This document shows positions 3,618 to 49,094 of a stretch of 64,000 nt of DNA, one piece after another. Origin of the DNA: Candidatus Chisholmbacteria bacterium (GTDB taxonomy: Bacteria; Patescibacteriota; Microgenomatia; UBA1400; Chisholmbacteraceae). The notes beneath the pieces were generated by a model. The model made no database searches and was not told the origin of the DNA. It saw only the letters and a list, made by a program, of their open reading frames with translations. Both the position numbers and the translations under genes were made by a program. Location of the stretch: NCBI GenBank assembly GCA_963704905.1, contig CAVPHZ010000002.1, positions 203,011-267,010 of the forward strand, written 5' to 3'. Numbering within the stretch: position 1 is the first letter of the stretch; each line of letters opens with the position of its first letter.

Positions 3618-5348
3618 ATGCCATCAATAGATCTAAATTGGAAAGTTGCCGGCTTTGCCGGAGAAGGAATCATGACAACCGGTTTGCTTTTTAGCAAAGT
3701 CTGCGCTCGTCATGGCCTCAACATTTTTGACTATACCGAGTATCCATCCCTCATTCGTGGCGGACACAATACCTATCAGGTGTTTGCCTCAAAAGATGAA
3801 GCAGTCGTTCAAAAGAAACAACTAAATCTCCTCGTTGCATTAAATAAAAATGCTCTAAATTTTCATAAGGACGAATTAAATGAAAATTCATTGGTAATTT
3901 ATGACAAAGAGGACGACAACATTAACATTGAAGAATTTTCTCTCCCTGGTAACTCATTCAATCTTCCCATGGTTCGCCTGGCAGAAGAATCGGGTGCTCA
4001 ACGTGTGATGTCAAATAATGTCGCAGTTGGAGCCTCATTATTTTTTCTGGGTTTAGATTTTAACATTCTCGAAGACCTTATCAAAGATATTTTTGGCAAC
4101 AAAGGCGAAGAAGTTGTGAATTTAAACAAGAACGCCGCCCGAGCTGGATACGATTTTGCCAAAGCCAACGGACAGTCGTTGATGGAAATTGAAAAACAAG
4201 ATCCAGGGAATCGATATACGCTTACCGGGAATGAAGCCGTAGGTCTTGGTGCAATTGCCGGTGGATTACAGTGTTACATTGCCTATCCGATGACTCCATC
4301 CAGCTCAGTTCTTCACTTCCTAGCAGCCAAGGCTGCAGATGCAAACATTGTTGTAAAGCATGCAGAAGATGAAATAAGTGTTATAAACATGGCTTTAGGT
4401 GCATCATTTTCTGGCGTTCGTGTCATGGTAGGAACTTCCGGTGGAGGATTTTGCTACATGACAGAAGCTTTGGGTTTGAGTGGAATTGCAGAACTACCCA
4501 TAGTAGTTTTTGTTGCCATGCGGCCCGGTCCAGCACTTGGCATGCCAACTTGGACTGCTCAGGGGGATTTGCAGTTCTTAATCAGCGCCAGCCAGGACGA
4601 ATTTCCCCGTTTTGTCTTGACACCCAGCAATGCTCAAGAATCGTTTGAATTAACCAGCGCAGCTGTAAATCTAGCAGAAAAGTATCAAACACCTGTAATA
4701 GTTGCAACTGACAAATTTATTGCTGAGAGCCGCCACACAATAGCGCTTGAAGGACAAACATTCAACAACAGTCGATTTGGATTTTCTCAAAATCCTCAGC
4801 CTGATGATTCTGGATTTTTCCCAAGATTTTCACCTACCGAAAATGGCGTAAGTGAGCGCGCCATTCCGGGTATATCAGGTGGAAATTACATTGCCAATTC
4901 CTATGAGCACGATCAATATGGTTTGGCAACCGAAGTTGCGGTAGTTCGACAAGCGCAAATGGAAAAACGATTTAAAAAATTTGAACATATGAAAAAAGAA
5001 GTACCACAGCAGTATTTCGATTCACAAGATGATGCAAAACTCACCTTCATTTCTTATGGCTCTTCAAAAGGCGTGATACAGGAAGCCAGAAAAATGCTCA
5101 GTAGAGATGGCGTCAACTCTAACATGCTCCATATCTCTTGGGCTTGGCCATTCCCTGCCGAGCAGGTTAAGTCGGTACTTGATCAATCACCGAAAACTCT
5201 TGCCGTGGAAGGAAACTACCAAGGACAACTCGCCCGTCTTATTGCTCAAGAAACGGGAGTCCAAGTTCAAAATCATCTGCATAAGTATGATGGCAGACCA
5301 TTTTATATAGACGATATTGTTAATCATGTTAAAGGGATGAACCTCTAA
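3618..5348 (+). CDS. korA: 2-oxoacid:ferredoxin oxidoreductase, alpha (fused gamma-alpha) subunit
   Basis: 576-aa protein with the OFOR alpha pattern (GNEAVGLGAIAGGLQCYIAYPMTPSS...); ATG preceded by AGGAAAG RBS; followed immediately by the beta subunit. Confidence 0.8.
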   Translation: MPSIDLNWKVAGFAGEGIMTTGLLFSKVCARHGLNIFDYTEYPSLIRGGHNTYQVFASKDEAVVQKKQLNLLVALNKNALNFHKDELNENSLVIYDKEDDNINIEEFSLPGNSFNLPMVRLAEESGAQRVMSNNVAVGASLFFLGLDFNILEDLIKDIFGNKGEEVVNLNKNAARAGYDFAKANGQSLMEIEKQDPGNRYTLTGNEAVGLGAIAGGLQCYIAYPMTPSSSVLHFLAAKAADANIVVKHAEDEISVINMALGASFSGVRVMVGTSGGGFCYMTEALGLSGIAELPIVVFVAMRPGPALGMPTWTAQGDLQFLISASQDEFPRFVLTPSNAQESFELTSAAVNLAEKYQTPVIVATDKFIAESRHTIALEGQTFNNSRFGFSQNPQPDDSGFFPRFSPTENGVSERAIPGISGGNYIANSYEHDQYGLATEVAVVRQAQMEKRFKKFEHMKKEVPQQYFDSQDDAKLTFISYGSSKGVIQEARKMLSRDGVNSNMLHISWAWPFPAEQVKSVLDQSPKTLAVEGNYQGQLARLIAQETGVQVQNHLHKYDGRPFYIDDIVNHVKGMNL

Positions 5349-40146: not shown

Positions 40147-40414
40147 CACGAATATACTGAAATGTTTACATCAAAGAGTATAATGACGGATGTCCTCATT
40201 GAGATTCGATTAAAGCAATGTTTACATTGAGAAACGCAGTGACCAAGTGTTTACACCGACCAACGGAGTGAGGAAGTGGCTAAGTTCTATTCGAAAATTA
40301 AATCTCGCGTAAAGCTCGCATACCGCACACCCAATGCCTATAGGCGTGCAGTTAAATTCGAAAAAATACGTAATTCATCTAACGCTCAGCCAAAACCAAA
40401 GGAGACTCATAACA

Positions 40415-41308
40415 ATGACAAAAAAAGTTAAACAGATAACCAAAGACCCTGATGGAACAATTCACATCAAACTGACAATTTCCTGGGAAAAAGTCAAAAC
40501 TGCATACAACAAGGCCTTACTCGATTCAAAAAAAACACTCGAGGTAAAAGGGTTTCGCAAGGGTAAAGCTCCAGACAAAATTGTTGAGGAGCAAGTAGGG
40601 AAACAGTCACTCTATACGCAAGCGTTACAATACATTTTACCTGAAGCATACGCTGAAAAAGTAAAACAGTTAAAACTCAAACCGATTGTCAGTCCCAAGG
40701 TGGAGCCCAACAGCCTTGAAGAAGGTCAAACCTGGGAACTTACCGCAACATTGGCTGAAAAACCATCCATTAAACTTGGCGACTATAAAAAAATTGTGAT
40801 AGGTGCAAAGGCTGCTAGCAAAATCTGGACTCCAGGAAAAGATACCGACTCCCCAAAACAACAAGATGACACCGTACAACAAAAAGAAGCCTCTCTCGAT
40901 GAACGGCTGGCAAAAATCTTTGATGAACTTATTAACGAGGTGAAATTTGACCTACCAAAATTTCTCATCGAAGAACAAGTAAATCGCCAACTTTCTCGTC
41001 TCTTGGAACAAATAGAAAAACTTGGTCTTTCTCTGGAGCAATACCTTATCTCTCTGGGCAAAACTAGCGATCAATTACGAAAAGAATACCACCAAGAAGC
41101 CGAGCGAACGCTGAGACTTGAGCTGATCTTAAATGAAATTGCCAATGATCTGAAAACAACTGTTTTTGAAGAAGAAGTAGATAGACTTATAGATTCAGTC
41201 GGCGATGAGAAGCTGAAGGAAACATTGAAAAGTAACGCTCATGAGCGAGATGCCATCCGGGCCAGTTTACGAAAACGAAAAGTGACCGACGAACTGCTCA
41301 AAATGTAA
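40415..41308 (+). CDS. tig: Trigger factor (short form, apparently lacking the PPIase domain)
   Basis: N-terminal ribosome-binding signature GFRKGKAP and the trigger-factor N/C-domain pattern. ATG at 40415 preceded by AAAGGAG RBS; ORF-track start 40334 is upstream non-ATG. Confidence 0.75.
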   Translation: MTKKVKQITKDPDGTIHIKLTISWEKVKTAYNKALLDSKKTLEVKGFRKGKAPDKIVEEQVGKQSLYTQALQYILPEAYAEKVKQLKLKPIVSPKVEPNSLEEGQTWELTATLAEKPSIKLGDYKKIVIGAKAASKIWTPGKDTDSPKQQDDTVQQKEASLDERLAKIFDELINEVKFDLPKFLIEEQVNRQLSRLLEQIEKLGLSLEQYLISLGKTSDQLRKEYHQEAERTLRLELILNEIANDLKTTVFEEEVDRLIDSVGDEKLKETLKSNAHERDAIRASLRKRKVTDELLKM

Positions 41309-42082: not shown

Positions 42083-42265
42083 TTGACACATCCATTACAT
42101 ATTTGCTAAATATAACAATTATGAACAAAGTCTCTCAAACCTACATGCTTATTGATCCTATTTTTGTCCTTATTACCAAGGGCAGTTTTGGTTTGGGGGA
42201 AACGTTGTAAATAAAAATTAAAAATAAGCAAAAACACGAAACCTCCAAACCAGGAGGTTTTTTTG
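42083..42265 (+). promoter_or_regulatory. Candidate leader-peptide transcription attenuator. TTGACA-N18-TAAATA promoter, 29-codon leader ORF (42121-42210, MNKVSQTYMLIDPIFVLITKGSFGLGETL), antiterminator strand GGTTTGGGGG, terminator CCTCC-aaacca-GGAGG-U7.
   Basis: Seen directly: -35 TTGACA at 42083-42088; leader ATG at 42121 (near-leaderless); GGTTTGGGGG (42190-42199) is complementary to CCTCCAAACC (42242-42251) with one G-U; CCTCC (42242-46) also pairs with GGAGG (42253-57), followed by TTTTTTT. Confidence 0.45.
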
Positions 42266-42278
42266 TTTCTAAAGGAAT

Positions 42279-43895
42279 ATGAAACAAGAACGCGACATAC
42301 TAATCTATCCAAGTCACGATTTCGAAGTAGGGAATCACAACGTTGTTAGTCAAGACTTAAAAAGTGGTAAAAGTGTTGGACTGTTGGATGGAGCTTCTCC
42401 GAAAACACAATTGGATGTAGGAGGTCACTATGACTTCCGAAGCATAGATCAGTTGATGAACCAAGAAGCCAAGGGGTACGTACTTACTACAGATGCGGAT
42501 CGGTTGTTCGCCCAAGTTCTCTATCGAGGAATACTCGCAAATCGAAGCTTAACAGCTGTTGAAAGATTGCAAGATATTCCTACAAAGAAAGGGGAAGTTG
42601 GATTGTATATTCCATATGTGAACTTTTATCCACCCGAATTTCCTAACACTGCAACTTGGAAGAGATATGGACTTCCGACAGAAGTTGCTCAACGTGCACA
42701 AAATAAAGCTGACTTCCACAATTGGTTAGTCAAAGAAGGATTTGCAGAACATACTCCTAATCATATCGTTAGCAATGTTGAATCTATCCCAAACCTCGGT
42801 CAAAACATGATCAGACAAATTGATCAGATGTACTCTCAAGCCGCTATGCAAAGTGAGTATCCTTTAGGGCTAATGATCAGAGCAGCTAGAAGCGACGGAA
42901 ATTATGGTGCAGCAAAAGTGGTTCAGCTTGTAGAGGGTGAAACTATTATTGAAAATCATGAAGGTCTAGATATTGTAAGACGGTTTAAGGCTGGAGATAT
43001 TCTTATGTACCCAGATGGAAAGAAAAGGGGTATCAAAAAATTCTCGGAATGGCCAAGGGCTCTGGAAGCAGCTTCAAAGCATATTGAGGGTGCTATGGAT
43101 ATGAACGTCGACAGCAGAGTCGTGATGTCAAGACTCTTAGACTTGGAAGCATCCCCTGGAATAAGTGCCGTAATTATAAAAGGTATAGCTCACACATTTA
43201 GATGGAATGGTCAATGGCAAGAAGATGGAGAAAGCGCTTGTACTGGAACGATGAGCTATGATCTCGCACATGATGGAAAAATCGAGGCTGATTACTTTGA
43301 GCAAAGTCAAGAGGTATATGTAAGAGTTCTAAGTAAAATGCTGGTAGGTCAAGAAAATCTCGAAGATATTTATGCCAAGAACAACATGGATCTCATGATA
43401 CCAGGAAGGCTAGAGAGAAAGCTATGGCAAAGAGCTCAAAGAGACCCTTCCCTGTTTAAATATCTTGGAACTGTTGGAAGAAATAATCTGGAATATATGC
43501 CGAGAATCTATTCGTCCCAGGATGTACTTATTGCTGAAGATAATCCAAGAGACACGAACTGGACTCTGGCTGTGCAAGCTGTTTTACAAGCTCTACAACG
43601 TCAGTTTACCCTGGAAAATATGCTAGCAATTGCGAATGGACTAGATGGTCAGATTATAGCTAGAGATGTATGGCCTTTACCTGAAGCCCTAAGGGGAGAA
43701 GATATGGATAAGGTTCGTGATACTCTACTCGAATTTCATGAGAGAGTTAAGAGAAGAGGAGATGGTTTCATTTTACGAATGCCCGATTTACCAAAAGCAG
43801 GAGCTATAGCCTATACAACTGATGTGTCAAGAACTCCGTACGGTTTGTTTGATGAGGCCTACGGAGCACTAAATTCAAATAATCTAGGACTATGA
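42279..43895 (+). CDS. Large uncharacterised protein A (538 aa), downstream of attenuator 1
   Basis: ATG with AAAGGAA RBS; no confidently recognisable domain. Weak ATP-grasp-like hints (IRAARSDGNYGAAKVV; LIAEDNPRD) that I cannot confirm. Confidence 0.5.
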   Translation: MKQERDILIYPSHDFEVGNHNVVSQDLKSGKSVGLLDGASPKTQLDVGGHYDFRSIDQLMNQEAKGYVLTTDADRLFAQVLYRGILANRSLTAVERLQDIPTKKGEVGLYIPYVNFYPPEFPNTATWKRYGLPTEVAQRAQNKADFHNWLVKEGFAEHTPNHIVSNVESIPNLGQNMIRQIDQMYSQAAMQSEYPLGLMIRAARSDGNYGAAKVVQLVEGETIIENHEGLDIVRRFKAGDILMYPDGKKRGIKKFSEWPRALEAASKHIEGAMDMNVDSRVVMSRLLDLEASPGISAVIIKGIAHTFRWNGQWQEDGESACTGTMSYDLAHDGKIEADYFEQSQEVYVRVLSKMLVGQENLEDIYAKNNMDLMIPGRLERKLWQRAQRDPSLFKYLGTVGRNNLEYMPRIYSSQDVLIAEDNPRDTNWTLAVQAVLQALQRQFTLENMLAIANGLDGQIIARDVWPLPEALRGEDMDKVRDTLLEFHERVKRRGDGFILRMPDLPKAGAIAYTTDVSRTPYGLFDEAYGALNSNNLGL

Positions 43896-44626
43896 AAAAA
43901 CCAACTCTCCTTCTCCAATTCAGAACCGACAGATCAGAGATCCATGAGCAAACCTGCATTATGAAAAAAGGTGGATACCTGCCAGATGAACTCAAAATTA
44001 TTAACGTATTAAAAAATGGAAATACTCTTCCTAAGCCAGAAGCTCTTGATAACTATCAAGCAGTAATTACCGGCGCTTCAGGACAATACAACACTACAGA
44101 TTGGCCTCCAGATATCCGTAGGAAAGTTGAGAAATTCCTTCCATTGCTAAGAGAAATCATTAAAAGAGATAAGCCACTCCTAGCTATCTGTTTCGGACAC
44201 CAAATAATTGCCAACCTCCTCGAGGGAAAAGTAGAGAATGATGAGGATCAAGCTGAAACAGGCACTATTTCTGTCTCGTTAACCAAGGAGGGAAGAAAAT
44301 CGGATCTATTCGAAAATATTCCAGATAATTTCCATGTTGTTCTTGGTCATAAGGACTCTGTAACGAAACTGCCAAAACAGGCAATGCTATTGGCAAAATC
44401 TAAAACGTGCCGAGTAGAGGCGTACAAAATTAAAAACAATATCTATTCAGTCCAGTTTCACCCAGAACTCGATTTAGATGGTCTTATTTGGCGTTTAAAA
44501 CTATATCCTGAGTACCTAAAAGGGAAAACTTTTAAACAAGTTCGCTCTGAATATAACGAAATACCATACGCATCCAAAATCATAGAGAATTTTAAAAAAA
44601 TAACTTTCAAGAACGGTTTTAAATAG
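43892..44626 (+). CDS. Class I glutamine amidotransferase-like protein
   Basis: Catalytic triad context LLAICFGHQIIANLL (nucleophile elbow G-x-C-x-G) and VQFHPE (His-Glu); start overlaps protein A stop by 4 nt. Confidence 0.75.
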   Translation: MKKPTLLLQFRTDRSEIHEQTCIMKKGGYLPDELKIINVLKNGNTLPKPEALDNYQAVITGASGQYNTTDWPPDIRRKVEKFLPLLREIIKRDKPLLAICFGHQIIANLLEGKVENDEDQAETGTISVSLTKEGRKSDLFENIPDNFHVVLGHKDSVTKLPKQAMLLAKSKTCRVEAYKIKNNIYSVQFHPELDLDGLIWRLKLYPEYLKGKTFKQVRSEYNEIPYASKIIENFKKITFKNGFK

Positions 44627-44667
44627 TAATTAATAATCAATAATGTAACTTGATAAACCTAACAAAA

Positions 44668-44798
44668 ATGAATCTGATTACAAGAATCACCACATCTTTT
44701 GAATTTTTTAGCTTCTGCAAAGGAGGTTGTGTTCTTGCGGAAAAGTAACTACTAATAGATAGCAAGAAATATACAACCTCCATTCCGGAGGTTTTTTT
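44668..44798 (+). promoter_or_regulatory. Candidate Phe-responsive leader-peptide attenuator. 26-codon leader ORF (44668-44747, MNLITRITTSFEFFSFCKGGCVLAEK), antiterminator GGAGGTTGT:ACAACCTCC, terminator AACCTCC-attcc-GGAGGTT-U7 containing the GGAGG upstream of the ATG.
   Basis: Seen directly: GGAGGTTGT (44722-30) is perfectly complementary to ACAACCTCC (44773-81); CCTCC (44777-81) alternatively pairs with GGAGG (44787-91), followed by T7 and the ATG at 44799. Leader has 4 Phe codons within 6 codons (TTT GAA TTT TTT AGC TTC). Confidence 0.5.
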
Positions 44799-46573: not shown

Positions 46574-47986
46574 TTATAACCAACCCTTATAAATAATGTC
46601 TAACTTCTCCCTAGCGATTTTCCCTCCATCAAGGTCAACAGCTGTCAGTAGGAATGGATATGAAGCTTCAGTTCGACCAGACATCTCACTTTCAAATCGC
46701 TTAATCAAAGGCGCAAACCGCCTAGCATCGAGTGTGTACTTACCAACCAGACTACCATTCTCACGCACCACCGTTATGGAGCCGATTGGTGCCAGTCTCG
46801 CAGCATTTCCAACGTAGGCGAGTGCTAAAGAATTCTTGTTGACCGAACGTAAACTAAAAGACTTTTCTTCAACCCGAATATTCATACGTTGGGCAAGATG
46901 TCTGACAATAAACCACATCGTTGATGAAGGAAGTTGATTTACCTCAAGTGGGGGATAATACAACGTTTCTCCGTCATATGCCAGTACCCCCTCTCCTGGG
47001 CCATCCGCGATGACCACATTCTCGTACTGAGCATCAAATACACCAGGTTCCTGAAAGTTCACATATGATGCGATCCCACCATTTTTATCTACCGTGTAAG
47101 GTCCGAAGTAACCTGCCTCATCAATACCCTTGATATTACGCGCAAGTTTTCCCACTCGGCCGGCATCTCCATAGTTTGACGCATTTTTTCCCAAAATTGG
47201 AAACAAACGTTGGTCCGGAAAAAAAGCGATACGCAAACCCGATCCACCGTAAACTCTCTTTGGATGATTGAAATAATAAGGCCAATGTAAAGCCATTGCA
47301 GCCACATCAATCTGGTGATGTTCTTTTAGACTCACTCCGACACCGCCAGGTCCTGGTCGCGCTGATGGTCTAAGATAGGCTCTCGAAATTTCTCTTTTGG
47401 AGTTGGTGAGTATTCCCTCCCCCAAAACTGCAACCAGATCCCGAATTGCAAGATCAAATGTCTCGGGCAAACAGGGTAGCGAAAAAAACCTACTTTTCAG
47501 GGATATCTCAAATCGTTTCATCCGCAGAGGGTGCAAAACCAAATGTGCTCCCACAATTCTCCTGCCAGAGACTTCCGGCTCTACACTACTTCCTTCAAAA
47601 ACGCCAGAACCGTAATCTCCCGCGTGACTGGGTAATATCGTGGTTCGGTTGAGAGGATGCCATGAAGGCACGATGACTAGCTTGTTTTCATGGTAGGAGT
47701 AGACAAGGACATACGTGTTTCCTTTGCTTCCCTCTTCAAAAATATCCTTGCGTAGTCTGATCGATTCAGCGTCCGGTTCTTTATAAAAGTCAAGAATTCT
47801 GGTAGAAGGGAGATAATGAGCTATTCTATCTTCGATTCGTAAAGGAAATCCGAGTTGGATTGTTAGCTCATTAGTTGAAAATGATCGTTCAACTCTATCA
47901 AATTCCTCAAAAAGTGCTGACTTACGAAAATTCTTTGCCATTAAATTCATAGTAGCATTTCTATCATCAGATGTATGTGTCATCAA
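46574..47986 (-). CDS. Class IV (fold type IV) PLP aminotransferase, branched-chain aminotransferase-like, with ~100-aa N-terminal extension
   Basis: Aligns with IlvE motifs: SHAGDYGSGVFEG (cf. SHALHYGTSVFEG), HPLRMKRFEISLKS (cf. HREHMQRLHDSAKI), AYLRPSARPG (cf. AYIRPLIFVG), K-x-x-NY region (KNASNYGDAG), GNAARLAPI (cf. SGTAAEITPV). Confidence 0.6.
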   Translation of the reverse strand: MMTHTSDDRNATMNLMAKNFRKSALFEEFDRVERSFSTNELTIQLGFPLRIEDRIAHYLPSTRILDFYKEPDAESIRLRKDIFEEGSKGNTYVLVYSYHENKLVIVPSWHPLNRTTILPSHAGDYGSGVFEGSSVEPEVSGRRIVGAHLVLHPLRMKRFEISLKSRFFSLPCLPETFDLAIRDLVAVLGEGILTNSKREISRAYLRPSARPGPGGVGVSLKEHHQIDVAAMALHWPYYFNHPKRVYGGSGLRIAFFPDQRLFPILGKNASNYGDAGRVGKLARNIKGIDEAGYFGPYTVDKNGGIASYVNFQEPGVFDAQYENVVIADGPGEGVLAYDGETLYYPPLEVNQLPSSTMWFIVRHLAQRMNIRVEEKSFSLRSVNKNSLALAYVGNAARLAPIGSITVVRENGSLVGKYTLDARRFAPLIKRFESEMSGRTEASYPFLLTAVDLDGGKIAREKLDIIYKGWL

Positions 47987-48811: not shown

Positions 48812-48872
48812 AATGTCCATGCAATTTCACAATCGTAAACTGAAGAATACGATTCCCATCTTCTAGTATTCG

Positions 48873-49038
48873 TTGACAGCCACTGCTATACTATTTAGTA
48901 GAAACAATCTTTGCCTTGATCCAGCCTCACCAATTGGGAAGCAAAGCGTCAACCCGCGAACGGGGAGAATAAAGACCAAATCAGGATGGAACCGTCTTGA
49001 GCGCAGCGAAAGACTCCTGAATAAGGGGTCTTTTTTTT
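48873..49038 (+). promoter_or_regulatory. Candidate T-box leader upstream of thrS (promoter TTGACA 48873-78; antiterminator with UGGAACC bulge; terminator 49011-49038)
   Basis: Seen directly: AAATCAGGATGGAACCGTC matches T-box consensus AAUUAGGGUGGNACCGCG. Helix A1 CAGGA/TCCTG, 7-nt bulge TGGAACC (48987-93), helix A2 GTCTT/AAGAC, overlapping terminator AGACTCC-tgaataa-GGGGTCT followed by T8. Confidence 0.55.
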
Positions 49039-49094
49039 GTATTCGTTATAAATTTTAGATAATATGCTTCCCGCCGAAGTGTCTGATCTCGAAC

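Follow-up and report, generated by a model that had tools for sequence, protein, structure and literature searches.

A predicted leader-peptide attenuator with a near-leaderless short ORF upstream of an ATP-grasp ligase operon in a Candidatus Chisholmbacteria genome

How is the expression of a function-orphan ligase operon controlled in what appears to be a small-genome, uncultured bacterium? The question is raised by a stretch of 64,000 nucleotides (nt) of Candidatus Chisholmbacteria (assembly GCA_963704905.1, contig CAVPHZ010000002.1, positions 203,011 to 267,010; hereafter the window). It contains a two-gene operon encoding an ATP-grasp ligase of 538 amino acids (aa) and a class-I glutamine amidotransferase or peptidase C26-like amidohydrolase. 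Upstream of this operon we found a promoter-like sequence, a short open reading frame (ORF) and a hairpin followed by a U-tract. This element is probably a ribosome-mediated leader-peptide transcription attenuator that controls the operon and senses tRNA supply in the manner of the ilv leaders.

The initial annotation of this DNA placed TTGACA, an 18-nt spacer and TAAATA before the ATG of a leader ORF, and direct reading of the sequence gave the same positions for these elements and for the leader stop codon (Table 1). Its proposal of a promoter close to the leader ATG was supported in part. The -10 hexamer carries a TG extension, and an invariant TTGACA stands 36-40 nt before the ATG in each of the five related leaders described below; but TAAATA agrees with TATAAT at only 3 of 6 positions, and for this reason the promoter was not among the calls of a consensus promoter scan of the window. 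From these sequences the transcription start is predicted at about 42119-42121, and the leader ORF would therefore be leaderless or near-leaderless.

The core of the element is a segment (region 3) with two possible partners. With region 2, at the end of the leader ORF, it forms the GGUUUGGGGG:CCUCCAAACC duplex of 10 base pairs (bp) including one G-U pair, as first proposed, and this complementarity exceeds that of dinucleotide shuffles (p = 0.002 in the window). With region 4, the CCUCC of region 3 pairs to GGAGG to give an intrinsic terminator, which was likewise part of the initial proposal and was found by the consensus terminator scan and by a second scan. The terminator hairpin alone (42239-42260) folded at -12.6 kcal/mol (z = -4.9), and its GGAGG is followed by the T-tract. 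The minimum-energy fold of the full leader (-40.4 kcal/mol, z = -3.6) contained both a 1:2 and a 3:4 helix. In this fold region 1, UCUCUCAAACC, was paired with GGUUUGGGGGA (-18.8 kcal/mol for the duplex, shuffle p = 0.02 in the window), which gives the four-segment layout 1:2, 2:3 and 3:4; region 1 had been overlooked at first. The leader stop codon lies 9 nt downstream of region 2; from the end of the terminator it is 14 nt to the start of the ATP-grasp gene.

Through a ribosome-position model, we folded the RNA downstream of the leading edge of the ribosome (P-site +16) for each codon in the peptidyl (P) site, cut at the end of segment 4. In the window, the terminator helix had a probability of 1.0 on ribosome-free RNA. 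Its probability fell to about 0 when codons 5-18 occupied the P site (0.17 for codon 11), rose to 0.37-0.43 for codons 19-20 and was again 1.0 from codon 21 through the stop codon. The RNA downstream of a ribosome stalled at codon 18 took the antiterminator fold (-18.7 kcal/mol, z = -3.5), and that downstream of a terminating ribosome took the terminator fold. The hydrophobic codon cluster, codons 9-18, stops in the model at the final P-site position at which the ribosome still leaves region 2 unpaired. The ilv/trp-type geometry of the initial annotation was thus reproduced, with the antiterminator at the hydrophobic codons and the terminator near the stop codon; "ilv/trp-type" describes the mode of action here and not membership of a curated family. 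An equilibrium model permitting pairing across the ribosome proved misleading (locus L003, introduced below, was always terminated) and was superseded by folding the RNA downstream of the ribosome.

The mechanism may be pictured as follows. Transcription would start 0-2 nt upstream of the leader AUG, and a 70S ribosome would load at the 5' end on its emergence. When the 29 codons are translated with no delay, the ribosome at the last codons or the stop codon would cover or abut region 2; region 3 would then pair with region 4, the AAACCUCC/GGAGGUUU-U7 terminator would form, and a transcript of about 145 nt would be released. When no ribosome is loaded, region 1 would sequester region 2, leading to termination likewise. 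When the ribosome is slowed at about codons 5-18, chiefly in the Ile/Leu/Val/Phe cluster of codons 9-18, region 1 would be masked and region 2 left unpaired, an antiterminator of 10-12 bp could form between regions 2 and 3 before region 4 is synthesised, and the polymerase would enter the operon.

Is this design kept in relatives? The ATP-grasp ligase family is rare (16 clusters among 5.8 billion proteins), and a profile search for further homologues returned the same 16 proteins, so that no more than five to six independent leaders of this type were collected. The six proteins nearest to the window protein, itself included, form a loose subgroup: the window protein, P0002 (loci L001/L002), P0003 (L003), P0013 (L011), P0016 (L012) and P0011 (L007). 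A short ORF and a hairpin were found upstream of the gene in all five nearest homologues with recovered upstream DNA, at 32-47% identity. Of these leaders, those of L001/L002, L003 and L011 are complete, that of L012 is cut at the 5' end and that of L007 is a variant. In the complete loci, a TTGACA promoter precedes a near-leaderless short ORF of the same frame; the antiterminator strand lies at the ORF end, and an intrinsic terminator follows just upstream of the gene. The initial annotation had named conservation of the leader ORF and of the complementary segments in relatives as the point on which it could fail, and both were conserved in these five homologues. The leader design was absent from the six other homologue loci examined (L004-L006 and L008-L010), of which three bear the label Anaerolineae or Phototrophicales. 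When the ATP-grasp alignment was run against genome and metagenome collections, it gave three loci, all with no such leader; the two from the genome collection are labelled Anaerolineae.

Five leaders belong to this type, namely those of the window, L001, L003, L011 and L013a, the last reached via a second gene family. All five have a TAAAAT, TATTTT or TAAATA hexamer 8-11 nt upstream of the ATG and no Shine-Dalgarno sequence, and on this basis all are predicted to be leaderless or nearly so. The leader peptides listed for this type (MNQYLLNTIMINVLFMGVSGAGGNS; MNQCLLSTIISIVLFEGVQGVGGNL; MNNLSRDAKHMSSLINIMFVLFIED; MSTLTLLTIDHQPLTISISVILFTLFIILVRRMRRVLWT) come from homologous short ORFs in the same frame, and the related leaders share a [VT]-L-[FI] motif. 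Nine leaders were scored in total, the sister leaders described below among them. The proposed frame is open in nine of nine and the other frames are closed in eight of nine, the product of the chance probabilities for a sole open frame being about 3.5e-5. The stop codon lies between -18 and +13 nt relative to the region 2 end at all nine loci. An intrinsic terminator is present in the nine scored leaders and also in the 5'-cut L012 leader, 0-14 nt upstream of the gene start.

The paired segments vary in sequence from locus to locus yet remain complementary (Table 1); concerted changes were found in L003 and L012, and L011 pairs in another register. Because the MAFFT alignment of the leaders was too rough for column-wise counting of covariation, the 2:3 pairing was tested per locus, comparing the duplex with dinucleotide shuffles of the upstream leader. 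The complementarity was significant in nine of nine loci (p 0.0005-0.009), with Fisher-combined values of 1e-9 for the five leaders and 1e-16 for the nine. In the ribosome-position model the switch point falls right after the VL[FI] motif, at I18 in the window, L14 in L001, F15/E16 in L013a and I23 in L003, where the permissive window is exactly SSLINIMFVLFI. Counting Phe runs together with this motif, the modelled switch boundary lies directly downstream in eight of nine loci. Within the leader ORF of the window there is also an inner hairpin, which may act as an RNA-polymerase pause hairpin synchronising ribosome and polymerase; comparable small hairpins, built on the conserved GUCCUC, were found in L001 and L003.

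The gene upstream of the element is not constant: it encodes a DUF5660 protein in the window and L001, an M20 peptidase in L003 and an opposite-strand transposase in L013. Therefore, the element travels with the downstream gene and not with the upstream one.

Two smaller points on the leaders may be added. The variant region of L007 (2830-3000, upstream of P0011) contains a possible GTG-initiated ORF of 14 codons (..NNVLFIMNY) that retains the GUCCUCUUUAUU motif and is followed by two different hairpins lacking a good U-tract. The leader may have degenerated or been re-wired here. A Met-Asn start (AUGAAU or AUGAAC) was found in seven of nine leader peptides (those of the window at 42121 and 44668, L001, L003, both of L013, and L015), and this start may reflect which sequences are favoured when translation begins on leaderless mRNAs in this lineage.

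Table 1. Features of the attenuator region, its sister element and related loci (coordinates of the window unless a locus is named)
Feature	Location	Strand	Remarks
-35 hexamer TTGACA	42083-42088	+	read from the sequence; identical hexamer in L001, L013a, L003 and L011
Extended -10 TGcTAAATA	42104-42112	+	TG 42104-42105, TAAATA 42107-42112; 18-nt spacer to -35
Leader ORF MNKVSQTYMLIDPIFVLITKGSFGLGETL	42121-42210	+	29 codons and TAA; ATG 42121, TAA 42208-42210
Region 1, anti-antiterminator UCUCUCAAACC	42131-42141	+	codons 4-7; partner of region 2 in ribosome-free RNA
Hydrophobic codon cluster M L I D P I F V L I, putatively regulatory	42145-42174	+	codons 9-18
Inner hairpin UGUCCUU-AUUACC-AAGGGCA, then UUUUGGUUUG	42164-42185	+	hairpin scan and fold
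Region 2, antiterminator 5' strand U-GGUUUGGGGG-A	42189-42200	+	codons 24-27; DNA GGTTTGGGGG at 42190-42199
Region 3 CCUCCAAACC	42242-42251	+	DNA CCTCCAAACC; common to antiterminator and terminator (CCUCC with region 4)
Intrinsic terminator, stem AAACCUCC/GGAGGUUU, loop AAACCA, U7	42239-42264	+	terminator scans and fold; GGAGG 42253-42257, T7 42258-42264
Operon under predicted control	42279-44626	+	ATP-grasp ligase and amidohydrolase genes
538-aa ATP-grasp ligase gene	42279-43895	+	
Class-I glutamine amidotransferase/peptidase C26-like gene	43892-44626	+	4-nt overlap with the ATP-grasp gene
Sister leader ORF MNLITRITTSFEFFSFCKGGCVLAEK	44668-44748		
Sister segment AGGAGGUUGUGUU	44721-44733		complementary to the terminator 5' arm
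Sister terminator AACCUCC-AUUCC-GGAGGUU and U7	44775-44798		
Displacement pair, region with the ATP-grasp ligase	L001 2387-4076		
Displacement pair, region with the 590-aa protein	L013 669-2572		
Switch strands, window			antiterminator GGUUUGGGGG; shared CCUCCAAACC; terminator 3' arm GGAGG
Switch strands, L001			antiterminator GGUGCGGGAGG; shared CCUCCCACC; terminator 3' arm GGGAGG
Switch strands, L013a			antiterminator GUGGGAGG; shared CCUCCCAC; terminator 3' arm GGGAGG
Switch strands, L003			antiterminator GGUGAGAG; shared CUCUCACC; terminator 3' arm GAGAGG
Switch strands, L011			antiterminator GGAGGGUUUUGUGG; shared CCACAAAACCCUCC; terminator 3' arm GGAGGG
Switch strands, L012			antiterminator GGCGGG; shared CCCGCC; terminator 3' arm GGCGGG

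Locus L013 showed the element before a different gene. One of its leaders, L013a, shares about 80% identity with the L001 leader, and the gene behind it encodes an unrelated 590-aa protein, which gave an hhalign probability of 0.2 against the ATP-grasp family, and the next gene in both operons encodes an M20 peptidase, 70% identical between the loci. L001 and L013 represent a non-orthologous displacement inside one attenuator-controlled operon. Since such a similar leader stands before a gene that does not encode an ATP-grasp protein, the element is a regulatory module and not a partner of the ATP-grasp enzyme. Between the L001 and L013a leaders, nine of ten changed codons are non-synonymous, with the hydrophobic count preserved. 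The 590-aa protein is a faint paralogue (E 7e-5) of a 547-aa protein encoded in the window. The displacement suggests that the two orphan families, ATP-grasp and 590/547-aa, do analogous jobs.

The gene of this 547-aa protein (ATG 44799) has a second attenuator of the same design upstream, at 44640-44798; no clear promoter was visible for the window copy. The 3' arm of its hairpin (44775-93) contains GGAGG, which is also the Shine-Dalgarno sequence of the gene, 7 nt upstream of the ATG; therefore, the sister element may act on both transcription and translation. Leaders of the homologues of the 547-aa gene (MNQFNTFTFFFFNAFSGEVKV; MNLKNTSILFFFFNLIEGEGVL; MKTHASLFSKFFFSLAKGRYGCLT) have plain Phe runs, such as MNQFNTFTFFFFN..., ...ILFFFFN... 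and ...KFFFS..., and the leader of L012, the most divergent ATP-grasp homologue, reads ...LFSFDFFFNLIGGGEV. The end of the Phe run coincides with the switch point of the model, at F12 in L013b, F13 in L015 and L016, and F14 in the window sister (win_A2). The 547-aa protein itself was predicted with poor structure (predicted local distance difference test, pLDDT, 42), and PDB profile searches with it gave nothing useful.

Which signal is sensed? The initial annotation called the leader rich in Leu, Ile, Val and Phe. This held locally, where eight of the ten codons 9-18 specify Ile, Leu, Val, Phe or Met, but only modestly over the peptide as a whole. Every permissive window contains 2-3 Ile and 2-4 Leu codons and, in most cases, one or two codons apiece for Val and Phe. 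A run of a single amino acid at the switch position is the signature of charged-tRNA supply sensing. By analogy with the Phe-run sister leaders, and because of the Ile, Leu, Val and Phe codons of the permissive windows, we read the element as a multivalent hydrophobic sensor of the branched-chain type. Most likely, the signal is that charged tRNAs for hydrophobic amino acids run short; Ile and Leu are the most consistent of these, with Val, Phe and Met present as well. The idea that rare codons slow the ribosome was dropped, as none of CUY, GUC and UUU is a rare codon in this genome, and in L011 UUA/CUA are used.

Several observations speak against sensing of tRNA supply, or against parts of the switch. 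Over the whole peptide, Leu, Ile, Val and Phe make up 12 of 28 residues (43%, against a background of 30%; p = 0.09). The codons used in the leader are not rare in this genome, and no run of any single amino acid is present in this leader type. The V-L-F order is kept across very divergent loci together with the third codon positions (GUC CUC UUU), which is more than codon counting needs and hints at an extra constraint on the RNA or the peptide. The regulated genes are not known genes of branched-chain or aromatic amino-acid metabolism. The 1:2 pairing was statistically convincing in the window only (p 0.07-0.56 at the other loci). The folding model is an equilibrium model with a fixed footprint (P-site +15); L011 deviates in it, since its motif can pair with segments 2 and 4 as well, and in three loci read-through is the default state. 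The modest enrichment, the non-rare codons and the excess V-L-F conservation leave room for an arrest peptide or a role at the RNA level.

In the arrest-peptide explanation, the main rival, the RNA switch is the same, and the ribosome would be halted by a sequence-specific nascent peptide of the [IM]-F-V-L-[IF] kind acting jointly with a small molecule inside the exit tunnel, instead of by charged-tRNA shortage. The ligand might be an antibiotic that targets the ribosome, or else a product or intermediate of the ligase/hydrolase pathway; TnaC, SpeFL and ErmCL are precedents, and the arrest motif of ErmCL is IFVI, which the IFVL of the leader resembles. The residue order and the GUC-CUC-UUU nucleotides are kept though the downstream proteins are only 36-47% identical, the motif is located in the model exactly at the last P-site positions competent for antitermination, and the codons are not rare. 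Against it, the residues flanking the motif vary freely (the nine non-synonymous changes between L001 and L013a), the Phe runs of the sister leaders are typical of tRNA-supply sensing, the downstream genes are not resistance determinants, and the ribosome-binding region of the window gene lies outside the hairpin. Weighing these points, we regard arrest in general as rather unlikely, and its specific form, in which [IM]-F-V-L-[FI] or N-V-L-F is a ligand-dependent arrest peptide of the TnaC/SpeFL type sensing a metabolite of the ATP-grasp ligase/amidohydrolase pathway, as quite unlikely. If it were true, the operon would be tuned to a pathway metabolite and not to tRNA charging, in a bacterium with a reduced genome.

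The short ORF might instead encode a functional peptide, either a substrate or precursor for the ATP-grasp enzyme of the PGM1-like or RiPP-like kind (RiPP, ribosomally synthesised and post-translationally modified peptide) or a hydrophobic micro-protein, with the hairpin as a leaky terminator setting the ratio of peptide to enzyme transcript. It lies directly upstream of an ATP-grasp enzyme whose nearest solved folds are peptide ligases including PGM1, and a peptidase and a GNAT acetyltransferase are encoded in some of the operons. We consider this improbable, and the RiPP-precursor form was rejected on account of the L013a leader before a non-ATP-grasp protein, the unconserved C-termini and the nine of ten non-synonymous codon changes. 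In contrast to the precursors of the PGM1/pheganomycin system and of graspetides, the window peptide is not conserved at a core site, is tied to a non-ATP-grasp gene in L013 and is embedded in a terminator/antiterminator switch.

In a riboswitch, or a leader RNA bound by a protein, the ORF would be incidental, and a ligand or protein would directly stabilise the anti-antiterminator or the antiterminator. The size of about 145 nt and the expression platform resemble those of riboswitches, and GUCCUCUUUAU, conserved at the nucleotide level, might serve as a binding motif. But no Rfam family was found at threshold, the AUG stands at the predicted 5' end with its frame ending beside region 2 in nine of nine loci, the other frames being closed as described above, and besides the switch helices and the small hairpin no conserved aptamer-like architecture was revealed. 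The Phe runs of the sister leaders, too, are meaningful only if translated. This explanation seems very improbable to us. Last, that the hairpin is just the terminator of the upstream DUF5660 gene (stop 42049) beside an unrelated promoter, with chance complementarities, is hardly credible: that gene has no other obvious terminator and read-through from upstream could also be stopped here, but the element goes with the ATP-grasp or 590-aa gene and not with the DUF5660 gene, and chance is excluded by the complementarity statistics.

We compared the attenuator reading with known systems. At Rfam gathering thresholds only tRNAs were found in the window. A permissive search gave one family, RF01859 Phe_leader, at 35.5 bits, and no other family at E < 1. 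This alignment was driven by the CCUCC/GGAGG terminator and contained many non-canonical pairs in the long stem, and membership was rejected, as the score is below the gathering score of 55.

Leader-peptide attenuation is textbook knowledge, and nearly all its curated examples belong to operons for amino-acid biosynthesis in cultivated Proteobacteria, Actinobacteria and Firmicutes. The enterobacterial attenuators include the trpL, ilvGMEDA/ilvBN, leu and pheA/pheST leaders. With them the window element shares the promoter-proximal regulatory short ORF, the 1:2, 2:3 and 3:4 segments, the stop codon blocking segment 2, and termination in the absence of a ribosome. The multivalent ilvGMEDA leader resembles the mixed Leu/Ile/Val content of the window leader, and the pheA/pheST leaders resemble the Phe-run sister leaders. 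Unlike the enterobacterial leaders, the window leader is predicted to be leaderless, has no Shine-Dalgarno sequence and no long run of a single amino acid, and would control an ATP-grasp ligase and an amidohydrolase, instead of biosynthetic enzymes, in what appears to be an uncultured host with a small genome.

Leaderless short-ORF attenuators encoding polycysteine were described in mycobacteria (bioRxiv 10.1101/834739), and a leader peptide in the ilvBNC operon of Corynebacterium (PMC11857589). These cases are similar in having a short ORF at or beside the 5' end of the transcript, an effect in cis on the operon and a response to amino-acid supply. The mycobacterial ones differ in lineage and in sensing Cys, and the window element has a canonical hairpin-U7 terminator and an antiterminator. 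To our knowledge, no intrinsic-terminator switch has been demonstrated for the mycobacterial short-ORF attenuators. The leucine-rich attenuator peptide of the Staphylococcus aureus ilv-leu operon (PMC5794164) likewise represents leader-peptide attenuation on branched-chain amino-acid supply outside Proteobacteria; it differs in controlling branched-chain biosynthesis genes, and a sequence relationship to the window element is not expected.

Drug-dependent attenuation of the erm/cat type (ErmCL, IFVI) is alike in its short hydrophobic leader peptide and in the stalled ribosome that remodels downstream hairpins. Unlike these systems, the hairpin of the window is a U-tract terminator, the gene start is not sequestered (GGAGG of the hairpin is 21 nt from the ATG, and AAGGAA at 42272-77 lies outside the hairpin), and the genes are not resistance determinants. 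Neither a sequestered Shine-Dalgarno sequence or start nor a resistance gene was found at the window operon; sequestration occurs only in the sister element, at 44775-93.

In the literature we found no description of attenuators in Patescibacteria or before ATP-grasp genes. What is new here is an additional example of a well-known mechanism, outside any curated family. As we read it, leaderless attenuation governs function-orphan genes, that is, a rare ATP-grasp ligase or the 590-aa protein replacing it, each coupled to an amidohydrolase, and the Phe-run sister element would govern another orphan gene family. The attenuators may thus serve as a functional pointer for three orphan gene families beyond the reach of homology. 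If the tRNA-supply reading is true, the orphan enzymes would be switched on when hydrophobic amino acids or Phe are scarce, pointing to amino-acid salvage or handling. The element of about 145 nt would also be a compact system for transcription-translation coupling on leaderless mRNAs. It is absent from Rfam and could seed a new family model.

The window, a segment of a bacterial chromosome, has a G+C content of about 41% and carries housekeeping genes as well as 15 dispersed tRNA genes. The 538-aa protein had no match in Pfam or NCBIfam; its assignment comes from the AlphaFold model, a predicted structure (pLDDT 92) with the ATP-grasp fold. The substrates of PGM1, one of the peptide ligases nearest to it among solved folds, are ribosomal peptides. 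Upstream of the attenuator lie the trigger factor gene and then the DUF5660 gene. The trigger factor (40334-41308) is only 324 aa, with the N- and C-terminal domains present and the peptidyl-prolyl isomerase domain undetected.

Elsewhere in the window, the region upstream of thrS (49095), at 48866-49040, contained TTGACA at 48866, a T-box-like motif AAUCAGGAUGGAACCGUC, a possible Thr specifier CUCACCAA and a strong terminator (49009-33 and U8); a segment upstream is complementary to the 5' arm of this terminator (-16.1 kcal/mol). The Rfam T-box model gave no match in this region even at E <= 1; it may be a divergent or short T-box leader. L013 contains AGAUGGAACCGCG upstream of its thrS region.

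A 470-aa class-IV (branched-chain-type) aminotransferase-like gene is convergent with the 547-aa gene, and 2-oxoacid:ferredoxin oxidoreductase and acyl-CoA synthetase genes are also present elsewhere in the window. The positions listed for these metabolic genes are 46574-47986 (minus strand) and 3618-5348, and they may be linked to hydrophobic amino-acid metabolism.

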